A DNA stretch of 64,000 bases from Escherichia coli (GCF_003991155.1 NZ_CP031293.1), one strand, 5' to 3'. Shown: positions 22,479-26,057, counted from the stretch's first letter. Notes: a model not told the origin generated them from the letters alone. A program made the numbers and translations.

Positions 22479-23018
22479 TCATATTGCCCCCAGCATGGTG
22501 GTGACCATCGCCATCAGTGGACCAGCCAGATCTGGGTCCACACGAAACATCGACACAATACCTTCACTAATTTCCTTCAGTTTCTGGTGGCGTGGTGCGT
22601 TGAGAATGACAGCCTGTTTTGCCTCACTGAGTTCCTTTTCCATTTCAGCCAACCTAGCCATAAAGCTATCCTGCTCAACCAGGTAACCGCGATATTCCAG
22701 CGGTAGTACCGCCAGAATTGCCGGGGTCAGTTCACGCACGTTATTTCGGTATTTTTCAGAATCGAATTTGTTATCGAGGAAGCGGAACAGCTTCTGGCGT
22801 GCACGGCTGACATCATCAGGGAAATCGATGGTGCCGCCGCCCAGCTCCCGATACTCATTCACAATGAGTGCGGCAACAACATCCTGATTATCTGCAGCCG
22901 ACCAGGCGCGAACGGCATCACGGATTTTTTCGTGGCCTGGCGCCTGTTTTGTTTGAGAACGATTTATCACCGCAGTCGGGGTAAATCCGCTAGTCTGTTG
23001 GTATGTAATTGGTTGCAT
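22479..23018 (-). CDS. Protein in the cII position (179 aa; possibly CII/CP76-family regulator)
   Basis: ATG with AAGGA RBS; lies between cro and O; far longer than lambda cII and not matching it; family assignment is from memory only. Confidence 0.4.
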   Translation of the reverse strand: MQPITYQQTSGFTPTAVINRSQTKQAPGHEKIRDAVRAWSAADNQDVVAALIVNEYRELGGGTIDFPDDVSRARQKLFRFLDNKFDSEKYRNNVRELTPAILAVLPLEYRGYLVEQDSFMARLAEMEKELSEAKQAVILNAPRHQKLKEISEGIVSMFRVDPDLAGPLMAMVTTMLGAI

Positions 23019-23099
23019 AATTGATTCCTTTAGTTTGAATTGACTGTTAATCAGTCTGTTAAGTTGATTGCTTATTGTTAAAGAGCGTGAAATGGAAAT

Positions 23100-23330
23100 T
23101 TAAGCTGCGTTCTTTTCGGTGTGTGGAAACAACTTCGGAAGATCCGGGCGAATCTGGTATGCCTTCACAACTCCACCAGTAGCCGTAACAATGCTGCCGA
23201 CATGTTCAGGGGATACCTTTGCTTTGTTGTGAAGCCACTTATAGACGGCCTGCTGTGAAACTTCGCAGGCATCGCCCAGTTTCTTTTGTGAACCAACTAT
23301 ATTGATCGCTGTTTTGATTGCTGGGTTCAT
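23100..23330 (-). CDS. cro: Cro-like HTH repressor
   Basis: 76 aa, HTH-like segment (QKKLGDACEVSQQAVYKWL); divergent from cI across operator region; GGAGG RBS. Confidence 0.7.
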   Translation of the reverse strand: MNPAIKTAINIVGSQKKLGDACEVSQQAVYKWLHNKAKVSPEHVGSIVTATGGVVKAYQIRPDLPKLFPHTEKNAA

Positions 23331-23362
23331 AACAACCTCCGTGGTTAATCTGAACCAAGATT

Positions 23363-23425
23363 AAAACTATGGTTGTTTTTAGTCAACAACCATTTTCGTT
23401 TGATGGAATAAAACCTTGGTTGTAC
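23363..23425. promoter_or_regulatory. oR: oR operator/promoter region (pRM/pR) with three related sites
   Basis: 17-mer AAAACTATGGTTGTTTT (23363-23379), related sites near 23383-23399 and 23409-23425 (AAAACCTTGGTTGTACA); same motif recurs at oL. Confidence 0.6.
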
Positions 23426-23434
23426 ATTTGGTCT

Positions 23435-24124
23435 ATGAAAACAACACTCTCAGAAAGACTTAAAGAAGCCAGATCAGCGCGAGGCCTTACACAAAAGGCA
23501 CTTGGGGATTTGGTTGGGGTTAGCCAGGCTGCTATTCAGAAAATCGAAACAGGGAAAGCTAACCAAACAACTAAAATCGTGGAGATCGCGAACGCTTTGG
23601 GTGTGCGCGCAGAATGGTTATCTTCTGGCATTGGAAATATGTCAGACAGTACAGTGCAACCAATACAATCAACTCTCAGCCATTCCAAATACTTCAAGAT
23701 TGACGTTCTTGATATAGAAGTCAGTGCTGGGCCGGGAGTCATCAACCGTGAGTTTGTAGAAGTTCTACGCTCGGTTGAGTACTCGTTTGACGATGCTCGT
23801 CACATGTTCGATGGTAGGAAAGCGGAAAATATCCGCATCATTAACGTGCGTGGTGACAGCATGTCAGGAACGATCGAACCAGGTGATCTGCTGTTCGTTG
23901 ATATCACTGTTAAATCTTTCGACGGTGATGGTATCTATGCGTTTCTGTACGACGACACAGCCCATGTAAAGCGCCTGCAAATGATGAAGGATAAGCTGCT
24001 GGTCATCTCTGATAACAAAAGCTACTCACCGTGGGACCCGATCGAGAAAGACGAGATGAACCGGGTGTTCATCTTCGGTAAGGTTATTGGGAGCATGCCG
24101 CAGACGTACAGGAAACACGGATAA
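23435..24124 (+). CDS. cI: CI repressor (HTH + LexA-like S24 peptidase domain)
   Basis: Track ORF 23369..24124; likely start MKTTLSERLKEARSARGLTQKALG at 23435 with no SD (leaderless, as for lambda cI from pRM); C-terminal serine-protease-type region (GDSM...K). Confidence 0.88.
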   Translation: MKTTLSERLKEARSARGLTQKALGDLVGVSQAAIQKIETGKANQTTKIVEIANALGVRAEWLSSGIGNMSDSTVQPIQSTLSHSKYFKIDVLDIEVSAGPGVINREFVEVLRSVEYSFDDARHMFDGRKAENIRIINVRGDSMSGTIEPGDLLFVDITVKSFDGDGIYAFLYDDTAHVKRLQMMKDKLLVISDNKSYSPWDPIEKDEMNRVFIFGKVIGSMPQTYRKHG

Positions 24125-24204
24125 TCAGCTGCGTGCTGATGAGGCTTTAGGGTAATGCGCTGAAAGAATTCTTTATAAAAATAACATTACGGGAAAGGCA
24201 AAAA

Positions 24205-24474
24205 ATGAGTGATAAAAAACTTATTAAAAAATCAAATAACTGTGTAGATGCATATGCTGATGCATTTGGATATTCATCTTTTGGGGAAGATGACGATCGC
24301 TTAGGCTCCATATCTTTCTTTCAGCATGTTACAGAATGGGACGCTGATGGTAGTAATGACACTGAAAGCGTAAAGTACAACATTGCAACAATTCGCATGA
24401 CGGAAGATTTAATGCTTAAACTCGCTGACTTTATTCGCGATCAGCATGATAGAGCTAAAACCAATAAGTCATAA
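24205..24474 (+). CDS. Hypothetical acidic protein (89 aa) in the rexA position downstream of cI
   Basis: AT-rich ORF, same strand as cI, 80 nt after cI stop. Confidence 0.55.
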   Translation: MSDKKLIKKSNNCVDAYADAFGYSSFGEDDDRLGSISFFQHVTEWDADGSNDTESVKYNIATIRMTEDLMLKLADFIRDQHDRAKTNKS

Positions 24475-24482
24475 TATTAACA

Positions 24483-24923
24483 ATGAAATACGGTTATTAC
24501 GAAGCTCCAAACCTAACTGAAAAGCTTGAACAAGCGGCAAGATCATCATCTTTGCACACCGCAGCATTTTCTCAATCAGCTGGTATGTCTGGCGATAATG
24601 TACCTATGCTACAATCAAGTGGTAGCGGTGGCTCTGGGAGTAATAATGTGCTTGAATCAAAAGTTGCAAAGCTTGAGTCTGATGTGTCCTACATCCGACG
24701 TGACGTTGATGAGCTTAAGACAGATGTCAAATCTATCGACAGAAACATGATCGCTGTTCTGGAGCGACTCGATTCAATAAAAGAGTCACTAGCCAAAAAA
24801 CCATCCATCGATGCTATCGATAAAAAGATTTCAGACGCAAAGCTTGCGGTATTGCTTGGTGTTCCAGCAATCATCGCTGCAGGAACAGGGCTTTATAAGC
24901 TATCAATGTACTTTTTTCTTTAG
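24483..24923 (+). CDS. Hypothetical coiled-coil protein with C-terminal transmembrane anchor (146 aa)
   Basis: Gly/Ser-rich linker, heptad-like region (LESKVAKLESDVSYIRRDVDELKTDVKSIDRNMIAVLERLDSIKESL), hydrophobic C-terminus LAVLLGVPAIIAAGTGLYKLSMYFFL. Confidence 0.55.
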   Translation: MKYGYYEAPNLTEKLEQAARSSSLHTAAFSQSAGMSGDNVPMLQSSGSGGSGSNNVLESKVAKLESDVSYIRRDVDELKTDVKSIDRNMIAVLERLDSIKESLAKKPSIDAIDKKISDAKLAVLLGVPAIIAAGTGLYKLSMYFFL

Positions 24924-25005
24924 TGCTTAAGAAACTGCTCGCCACCTCGCATTAGGCAAAGCGATTTTTCATTCCCTATTACCCTTTCTTAACCAATCAT
25001 CTAAA

Positions 25006-25032
25006 CCCGGCCCCGTGCCGGGTTTTCTTTTG
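25006..25032 (+). terminator. Rho-independent terminator ending the cI-downstream operon
   Basis: Stem CCCGGC (25006-25011) / GCCGGG (25017-25022), then TTTTCTTTTG. Confidence 0.65.
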
Positions 25033-25144
25033 CCCTCCCCTCATCACACACACCGTTAAAAAAACCACCATAACCTCGCTTCAGTTATCGCTATGCGATT
25101 CAAGTCACAAAATAAATCCATCCTAAATACAACCAGTTATATCT

Positions 25145-25197
25145 AAAACAACCAATAAAACAACTTTTGTTGTTGACGATAAAACAACTATAGTTTT
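25145..25197. promoter_or_regulatory. oL: oL operator/promoter region (pL)
   Basis: AAAACAACTATAGTTTT (25181-25197) differs at one position from the reverse complement of the oR 17-mer; related sites at 25145-25161 and 25157-25174; TTGACG -35-like hexamer at 25172-25177. Confidence 0.55.
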
Positions 25198-25395
25198 AAA
25201 TAAGTTCATCGCAACAACACAACGATACGGCAACCACCTGATTCACCGTTGCGATGACCGCTTAGATCCGCAGCTTGAATTTCAGCAGGCTCCGGGGAGT
25301 GCGAGGGGTGAAGCGGACGCGTGAACGTCGGTGTGACCAGCTGAAATCAACTCAACACTTCATACCTCAGTCGCTTCAACGAGGCGGCTTAGTTA

Positions 25396-25685
25396 TGACA
25401 ACCGGCGGCCATCCACCGCCTGAATACGCGCAGAAGTCTCTATATGTTCAGCAGCCCAGCTTACGGGCAGGAGTTTTTATGGTTCATCAACATTACGGTA
25501 CGCAGACCGTTAATCGCGGTGCGGTCATGCCAGGAATGCTGGTCAAACACAAAGATGGTACCTGGACTGCATCGGCTAATTTACGCGGACGGCTTTATCT
25601 GCATCGCGGCGTCGAGCGCACTTATACCCGTGACTTGCTCGTGGAAATTTTTCTCGACGGACGCGGCAACGGCCTGAATCACTAA
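25396..25685 (+). CDS. Hypothetical early-left protein (N/kil/cIII position); function unknown
   Basis: Track ORF 25275..25685 starts at TTG; first ATG with GAGG RBS at 25396 ([20 protein letters not shown]...); no match to recalled lambda N, kil or cIII. Confidence 0.35.
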
Positions 25686-25760
25686 TCCCCTTTCCTGTTT
25701 TCCTAATCAGCCTGGCATTTCGCGGGCGATATTTTCACAGCCATTTTCAGGAGTTCAGCC

Positions 25761-26057
25761 ATGAACGCTTATTACATTCAGGATCGTCTTGAGGCTCAGA
25801 GCTGGGCACGTCACTACCAGCAGATCGCCCGTGAAGAGAAAGAGGCAGAACTGGCAGACGACATGGAAAAAGGCCTGCCCCAGCACCTGTTTGAATCGCT
25901 ATGCATCGATCATTTGCAACGCCACGGGGCCAGCAAAAAAGCCATTACCCGTGCGTTTGATGACGATGTTGAGTTTCAGGAGCGCATGGCAGAACACATC
26001 CGGTACATGGTTGAAACCATTGCTCACCACCAGGTTGATATTGATTCAGAGGTATAA
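25761..26057 (+). CDS. gam: Gam (RecBCD inhibitor), short form
   Basis: 98 aa, matches recalled lambda GamS ([21 protein letters not shown]...). Confidence 0.9.

Follow-up and report, generated by a model that had tools for sequence, protein, structure and literature searches.

The DNA analyzed here is a 64,000-nucleotide stretch from Escherichia coli (GCF_003991155.1, NZ_CP031293.1), hereafter the window, which contains a lambdoid prophage integrated at the argU/DLP12 site. We found that an 879-bp accessory cassette (24124–25002, plus strand, as are all features below unless stated otherwise) occupies the slot between the cI-type repressor gene of this prophage and the terminator that follows it. 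The cassette consists of two genes: A, which encodes a small soluble acidic protein, and B, which encodes a tail-anchored coiled-coil membrane protein. A-B is restricted to temperate-phage cargo slots that are known for prophage-expressed exclusion genes (rexAB, sieA). We propose, with not quite an even chance of being right, that A-B serves phage exclusion, with B acting as the effector at the membrane.

The A-B cassette lies in a cargo slot between cI and its terminator

Two phages, PhiR34_1 (recorded host K-12 MG1655) and Turner, have flanks that are 98% identical to the window but lack A-B between the end of cI and the terminator, carrying 119 bp of unrelated DNA in its place. Because blastn homology to these phages breaks off at 24123 and resumes at 25003, the A-B segment was either inserted or substituted there and relies on the terminator of the repressor gene. 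The existence of these close viable phages also means that A-B is dispensable for lysis or lysogeny. The terminator common to cI and the cassette (25003–25033) is an intrinsic one that is retained in relatives with an empty slot; it has a 9-bp stem with six GC pairs (25003–25025) followed by TCTTTT. A terminator scan of the region returned 10 terminator-like sites versus 2.5 expected.

An original prediction, made from the nucleotide sequence, had described two same-strand genes of 89 and 146 codons directly after cI, ended by a clear terminator, in an AT-rich segment. Each of these points was confirmed. The open reading frames (ORFs) at 24205–24474 (A) and 24483–24923 (B) coincide with the RefSeq coding sequences, and the GC content of the segment is 37–42%, compared with about 52% for the recombination and replication genes on either side. 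The spacer between the cI stop (24124) and the A start (24205) is 80 nucleotides, and B begins 8 nucleotides after A. Since consensus scans revealed neither a terminator-like hairpin nor a promoter-like site between cI and A, the simplest reading is that A-B would be cotranscribed with cI by read-through from the repressor gene.

The cassette showed the features of a moron, namely sharp boundaries with empty sites, lower GC content and occurrence in three genomic slots (see below). It is presumably a horizontally mobile accessory cassette that is expressed in the lysogen. The prophage sequence in the window was 100% identical in strain 2016C-3878 and in more than 20 other complete genomes, and the A-B allele group was present in 197 of 5426 complete E. 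coli genomes (at least 80% of a 931-bp query covered). A query consisting of the two flanks matched 2232 of the 5426 genomes, 1141 of which covered at least 80% of it at one place. In the sampled E. coli rows of these flank matches the cI slot was mostly empty; otherwise it held A-B alleles or other cargo. The alternative cargo included a 287-amino acid protein of phrog_5147 that weakly matched the PADLOC candidate PDC-S42 (E = 1.5e-4; locus L058, 850–1713), a BamE-like lipoprotein of phrog_3135 (L059, 1013–1393), and a phrog_4293 protein together with a B-like protein (L060, 818–1629). Because other E. coli strains hold alternative cargo or an empty site there, we conclude that the slot between cI and the terminator is a variable cargo hotspot.

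A and B are genes under purifying selection

The names given to the pair in the databases are all 'hypothetical protein', including those of both RefSeq coding sequences. We compared the two genes with four diverged homologous cassettes to determine the ratio of nonsynonymous to synonymous substitutions (dN/dS). This ratio was 0.06–0.11 for A and 0.12–0.13 for the C-terminal part of B (coiled coil and transmembrane helix) where the module type matched. The N-terminal 55 codons of B gave values of 0.27–0.55, and are therefore faster evolving yet still coding. As these values show purifying selection, A and B are real genes rather than chance ORFs.

The A protein (phrog_4231, an orphan family) is soluble and, as predicted, acidic, with an isoelectric point of 4.82 and a net charge of −5.3. 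Its predicted fold is a three-stranded β-sheet followed by a C-terminal helix. The family is narrow: an exhaustive profile search of 1.84 billion representatives identified eight true clusters at 50% identity, and a scan of one genome per species gave no confirmed match. One WD40 protein that appeared in the profile search was a spurious match.

The B protein (phrog_3556) has the layout that had been foreseen, in which a Gly/Ser linker precedes a heptad coiled coil and a single C-terminal transmembrane (TM) helix. Alignment identified residues 1–44 (24483–24614) as a variable, partner-specific N-terminal region with the motif YYEAPNLxEKLE...MLQSS, for which the model shows mainly disorder and a short helix spanning residues 11–20. 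The linker comprises residues 45–55 (S45–N55; 24615–24647). The conserved coiled coil (residues 56–118; 24648–24836) was delimited by heptad register analysis and by family conservation of 'MLEARVAKLESDVSYIRRDVDELK'; its best register has hydrophobic residues at 74% of a/d positions, versus 26–47% in other registers. The TM helix (residues 119–137; 24837–24893; AKLAVLLGVPAIIAAGTGL) has a KD19 maximum of 1.8 and is followed by a 9-residue C-terminal tail (24894–24920). Because lysines precede the TM helix, the positive-inside rule would give B an N-in/C-out topology with a cytoplasmic coiled coil. The TM segment of this type (type 1) is almost invariant across genera, which suggests that it does more than anchor the protein.

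When the coiled coil of B was compared with solved structures, the weak matches obtained included several trimeric coiled coils (Lpp, the P22-like tail needle gp26 and viral fusion proteins; E = 0.0075–0.087). Homology to Lpp and the tail needle was rejected, the likeness being taken as compositional similarity of trimeric coiled coils. These matches may hint at the oligomeric state of B, although they are probably compositional.

The B gene also contains an in-frame codon at which translation could start, GTG at 24648–24650 in the window and ATG in relatives. This codon specifies the first residue of the coiled coil, which lies outside the heptad core; the alignment column holds M or V, with Met in almost every family member and GTG-encoded Val in the window. 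In the window a Shine-Dalgarno (SD)-like sequence, GGGAG, is present within the linker at 24636–24640, 7 nucleotides ahead of the GTG codon. Similar sequences (GGAGG or GGAG) were found 4–11 nucleotides, usually 7, upstream of the internal start in 12 of 14 distinct genes. The motif is made of GGA-GGN glycine codons, and GGA accounts for 34% of the linker glycine codons versus 14.6% in the long ORFs of the window (binomial p = 2e-5 for sequences that are not independent). Gene callers frequently choose this start, giving rise to many database entries of 90–93 amino acids. Given the conserved start codon, the linker-encoded SD sequence and the starts chosen by gene callers, a second B isoform of 91 amino acids, consisting of the coiled coil and TM helix with no tether, is plausible. 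Such isoforms would recall the dual-start pairs S107/S105 of lambda and SieB/Esc of P22.

The N-terminal tether of B is matched to its partner, whereas the membrane end is exchanged

We identified 109 clusters related to B, which have the coiled-coil head 'MLEARVAKLESDVSYIRRDVDELK' and the preceding Gly-rich linker in common. What varies is the N-terminal region, of 25–60 residues, and the coiled-coil/TM module at the C-terminus. The proteins are about 90–170 amino acids long and tail-anchored, and they have no secretion signal. Selection figures placed the mosaic breakpoints of B at the linker: compared with the homologue of locus L029 the N-terminal half of B was more diverged, whereas compared with that of L038 it was the C-terminal half.

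We fetched 80 further viral loci with the B alignment, 69 of which were scorable, having an identifiable coiled-coil motif as well as an upstream ORF. A partner ORF of 87–187 amino acids ended between −50 and +8 nucleotides from the B start in 69 of 69 cases. The gene 5′ of the partner resembled cI in 47 of these loci and mnt in 8, and was unclassified in the other 14. The partners fell into six BLAST clusters, some of which are remotely related via phrog_5893; the others are A and a family of 112–132 amino acids. Each B N-terminal type occurred with one partner family only. The 'YYEAPNL...MLQSS' type was present in 15 of 15 A-linked loci and was found exclusively with A-family partners. In contrast, two to four membrane-end types were combined with each partner family, those paired with A being the 'LLGVP' type of the window, the UPF_BP1 type and the XhlA type. 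Thus, the membrane end is freely exchanged, whereas the N-terminal tether is genetically matched to the soluble partner. Modularity of this kind is typical of arms-race systems.

The pair occupies three cargo slots in temperate phages

Conservation of the pair downstream of cI had been put forward as a check on the original prediction, and synteny was indeed kept across genera: a B-like gene lay directly 3′ of the A homologue in 30 of 30 viral-contig loci, with spacings from an overlap to a 13-nucleotide gap. Homologous pairs were found after cI, after mnt, and on the opposite strand in tail clusters. Plasmid searches revealed no A-B pair, and more remote A homologues likewise follow cI or mnt. 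Two distinct DNA-binding N-termini occur among the cI alleles of the after-cI copies, and the cassette thus accompanies more than one immunity type. The after-mnt copies occur in P22-like elements, including Salmonella phage UPF_BP1 and prophages of Serratia, Leclercia and others. In these the start of the pair overlaps the mnt stop codon or sits 3 nucleotides from it, and orf59a and sieA, which occupy the mnt-to-gene-16 interval in the P22 reference genome, are replaced. For the tail-cluster copies (L046 and L049), promoter scans gave no convincing promoter or terminator of their own.

Several loci showed additional features. A third gene follows B in Citrobacter locus L005 (6474–6854), encoding a 126-amino acid lipoprotein (phrog_3135) whose N-terminus weakly matches the exclusion protein Cor, and in Serratia locus L003 (6957–7262), encoding a 101-amino acid secreted protein. 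In a Gifsy-2-like Salmonella prophage next to pncB (L009–L012), a phrog_5893 partner and a B-like gene come right after a short Gifsy-type repressor gene. The B gene of these loci is annotated from the internal Met (90 amino acids), and the upstream in-frame extension is open (127-amino acid form, P0060). A Salmonella prophage transcriptome paper contained nothing on the Gifsy-2 copy. Salmonella phage 29485 carries a more distant partner and B-like pair (L061, 3053–3797) just 5′ of the genes for the tail chaperone and tape measure, which share its strand; this pair may be either cargo or part of the structural module.

The surrounding immunity region

The repressor gene (23435–24124) encodes a helix-turn-helix protein with an S24 peptidase domain, which RefSeq names 'S24 family peptidase' and which matched phrog_4 (transcriptional repressor) with E = 6.5e-73. 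RefSeq starts cI at 23369, and an operator-like palindrome at 23369–23393 covers this ATG. Because of this overlap, cI more probably starts at 23435 (MKTTLSERL...). The immunity region is bounded by operator-like palindromes with AACAAC/GTTGTT half-sites at 23369–23393 and 25159–25174. Opposite cI are a divergently transcribed cro-like gene, the O/P replication genes and, at the cII position, a YdaT-domain gene. The gene at the cII position (22479–23018, minus strand) encodes a 179-amino acid YdaT-domain protein, and there is no lambda-type CII. YdaS/YdaT-like genes adjoin cI in Citrobacter loci L005–L008 as well, in an arrangement like that in the window.

Downstream of the cassette, sequence reading pointed to a second operator-like palindrome (AACAACTTTTGTTGTT) together with a putative pL promoter (TTGACG-17-TTAAAT) at 25159–25201, which would head a Kil-Gam-Bet-Exo operon; this promoter was not among the sites listed by the strict promoter scan. 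The first recognizable gene past it encodes a 68-amino acid Kil-type cell-division inhibitor (25479–25685; phrog_294, E = 7.7e-37), and Gam, Bet and Exo come next. A longer mechanical ORF at 25275–25685 (136 amino acids) is probably not an actual gene. No N-like antiterminator was identified, and an Rfam scan of 22800–25900 gave no match.

A possible exclusion function and its alternatives

The overall pattern fits a phage-versus-phage function best because the cassette appears to be expressed in the lysogen, the soluble subunit and tether are matched, the membrane end is swapped, and the pair is restricted to slots of exclusion genes. In the mechanism that we propose, the prophage would express A and B during lysogeny through read-through from the repressor gene. 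B would sit in the inner membrane via its C-terminal helix, its coiled coil and tether facing the cytoplasm, and soluble A would act together with the partner-specific tether as a specificity or regulatory subunit. An infecting phage would provide the signal on which A might release or activate B, and the conserved small-residue-rich TM helices of B would then compromise the membrane or cooperate with the invader's holin. The outcome would be Rex-like abortive infection or premature lysis, which would exclude other phages; this particular mechanism we advance only tentatively. Cotranscription with cI, the topology of B, the A–B contact, the defence role and the membrane lesion are all steps that we infer, the basis for the contact being genomic covariation. 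The argument for defence draws on guilt by location and on the modular architecture of the family.

Several results weigh against this proposal. The claim in the original prediction of a sensor plus membrane-effector abortive-infection pair was not borne out by homology searches. In PADLOC v2.0.0, A matched no families, and B and its relatives gave only coiled-coil noise (E > 0.005). Neither protein matched an NCBIfam or Pfam defence family, and no enzymatic or known sensor domain was detected in either. We also modelled a B(1–75)-linker-A fusion with AlphaFold2, using a shallow, hand-paired 12-row alignment and obtaining per-residue confidence as the only output. The B N-terminus had a per-residue confidence (pLDDT) below 62, the predicted template modelling score (pTM) was 0.33, and there was no confident docking of the two proteins. 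Remote homology searching and structure prediction, which the original prediction had suggested as checks, yielded PHROGs of unknown function and a fusion model with no confident interface. In addition, window B fell below significance against Pfam XhlA (PF10779; independent E-value (i-E) 0.26), cargo slots hold nondefence genes too, as shown by the BamE-like lipoprotein in the cI slot, and a constitutively made holin-like protein would need tight control, which is hypothesized only.

Other functions were considered in light of the same data. Inner-membrane B could instead block DNA injection, as do SieA, HK97 gp15 and Sie2009, with A as an accessory. Tail-region morons such as HK97 gp15 block DNA injection. 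Such a role would suit the P22-like phages in which the pair stands in for sieA/orf59a in the mnt-to-gene-16 interval, SieA being an inner-membrane injection blocker (PMC10883804). However, B would be almost wholly cytoplasmic, its type-1 form leaving about 9 residues past the TM helix, whereas known injection blockers are polytopic or periplasm-exposed (SieA has three TM helices). Since B also has no similarity to SieA, and since this model would not explain why a soluble, family-specific partner is required, we consider an entry block unlikely. We regard as equally unlikely a role in the prophage's own life cycle, either in lysis timing or induction control (as a holin accessory, antiholin or XhlA-like protein) or as a toxin-antitoxin-like addiction module in which acidic A neutralizes membrane-toxic B and thereby stabilizes the prophage. 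The order of a small acidic protein followed by a membrane protein resembles that of toxin-antitoxin operons, the possible dual-start isoforms recall a holin/antiholin pair, and B has XhlA-type relatives, XhlA working with the holin in PBSX lysis (PMC5589764). Yet the cassette belongs to the lysogenic (repressor) unit rather than to a late lysis cassette, close phages are viable without it, and none was found on plasmids, where addiction modules are common.

Lysogenic conversion, in which the pair would alter host physiology or virulence (envelope stress tolerance, or a 'cell-associated haemolysin') and would not act on phages, appears slightly less probable still. Morons in such slots include host-fitness genes, as illustrated by the BamE-like lipoprotein in the cI slot of other strains, and a virulence role was proposed by Niu et al. 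(2015) for a Mannheimia XhlA-domain gene beside cI (PMC4553209). However, the haemolysin idea is based only on a Pfam family name, B-family proteins are small (about 90–170 amino acids), tail-anchored and devoid of a secretion signal, and hypervariable partner-specific modules better fit an antagonistic, coevolving target than a housekeeping host function. Finally, the lack of known domains and the AT-richness would be compatible with decaying or nonfunctional remnants. Against this, dN/dS is 0.06–0.13, more than 20 complete genomes carry the ORFs intact with 100% identity, coverage reaches at least 80% in 197 of 5426, and the two genes stay side by side across genera. Selection and synteny effectively refute this explanation, to which we give next to no weight.

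Should the exclusion proposal hold, a broader version of it is conceivable, although we doubt it more than we credit it. A-B might be the founding example of a large, highly modular and so far unrecognized prophage-immunity class, in which each soluble sensor docks to the matching hypervariable tether of an XhlA-superfamily tail-anchored coiled-coil protein. Infection would trigger this effector to form or nucleate a holin-like membrane lesion, and a short isoform, made from the internal start behind the linker-encoded SD sequence, would tune or execute the response. This class would span Enterobacterales, and perhaps also Pasteurellaceae, with at least three unrelated, interchangeable families of soluble sensors, and its tether-less isoform could be likened to S107/S105 or SieB/Esc. 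If the pair does exclude phages, XhlA-like proteins would gain a function outside lysis cassettes and 'haemolysin' annotations derived from the Pfam name would be corrected. The wider B family spans many enteric genera, and its strict pairing of partner and N-terminus together with free swapping of the membrane end constitutes a natural experiment in sensor/effector recombination. Even if the pair does not exclude phages, it is a very common and presumably lysogen-expressed membrane module.

Comparison with known systems

Comparison of A and B with Pfam, NCBIfam, PADLOC, PHROGs and PDB sequences returned only PHROGs of unknown function and coiled-coil noise, and the PDB sequence searches gave no solved-structure relatives of either protein. 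Our literature searches found no paper on the pair, its accessions or its PHROG identifiers, and the accessions were not present in the DefensePredictor supplements.

The rexAB-equivalent position assigned to the pair in the original prediction was upheld. The order cI, two genes, terminator, operator-promoter and Kil-Gam-Bet-Exo parallels the cI-rexA-rexB-OL/pL-N order of lambda. As with rexAB, the pair is directly 3′ of cI (stop at 24124, A start at 24205), on the same strand, and ahead of the shared terminator (25003) and OL/pL. In both cases a soluble protein is followed by a membrane protein, and both are presumably lysogen-expressed. The proteins themselves do not resemble RexA or RexB, as had also been anticipated: the best BLASTP E-value of A against RexA was 5.3, B had no match to RexB, hhalign of the A family against RexA gave a probability of 0.3%, and PADLOC returned no Rex match. 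RexA is also much longer (278 amino acids versus 89 for A), and RexB is polytopic and channel-like, unlike B, a tail-anchored coiled coil that would cross the membrane once.

SieA is a prophage-expressed inner-membrane protein of 162–164 amino acids with three TM helices that blocks DNA injection; its types A–C contain the motif FxRYPxEAxxFNK (PMC10883804). The pairs of UPF_BP1, Serratia, Leclercia and others stand at the SieA position (gene 16–gene 9, immI), between mnt and gene 16 in the mnt orientation where orf59a/sieA would be, the window copy being in a lambdoid prophage. B would likewise be a prophage-expressed inner-membrane protein. In contrast to this single protein with three TM helices, A-B comprises two proteins, with a cytoplasmic coiled coil and one TM helix. 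We found no similarity of A or B to SieA or orf59a, the best BLASTP match to SieA being E = 1.6 over 18 residues.

The loose likeness of B to XhlA noted in the original prediction held at the level of the family but not for window B itself. XhlA and B share an architecture in which an N-terminal coiled coil leads into one TM helix at the C-terminus, and mosaic relatives that share the coiled-coil head and linker of B but have an 'ALNGLVLK' end match PF10779 (P0103, i-E 2.8e-5; NCBI name 'hemolysin XhlA'). Window B has another type of TM/C-terminal module. Among 39 B-family members, 1 matched PF10779 at ≤0.001 and 11 at ≤0.1. XhlA of PBSX, a membrane protein, is needed for lysis along with the endolysin and the holin XhlB (PMC5589764). 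Its gene lies in a late lysis operon with those of the holin and endolysin, whereas A-B is in a repressor operon with a soluble partner; no holin or endolysin gene is present in the unit, whose neighbours are cI and the terminator. In Mannheimia lambda-like phages, an XhlA-domain gene with one TM helix beside cI was proposed to have a virulence role as a possible haemolysin (Niu et al., 2015; PMC4553209). That reading follows the Pfam family name, not an assay.

A-B thus lies outside the Rex, SieA and, strictly, XhlA families. A further parallel is offered by gp30/gp31 of mycobacteriophage Butters, reportedly a prophage-expressed two-gene defence system in which a soluble and a membrane protein are encoded beside the immunity repressor gene; with unrelated hosts, this is an organizational analogy only. 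If the A-B pair excludes phages, it would be a compact and widespread addition to prophage-encoded immunity, made of proteins that are unrelated to RexAB and SieA yet reside in their slots.
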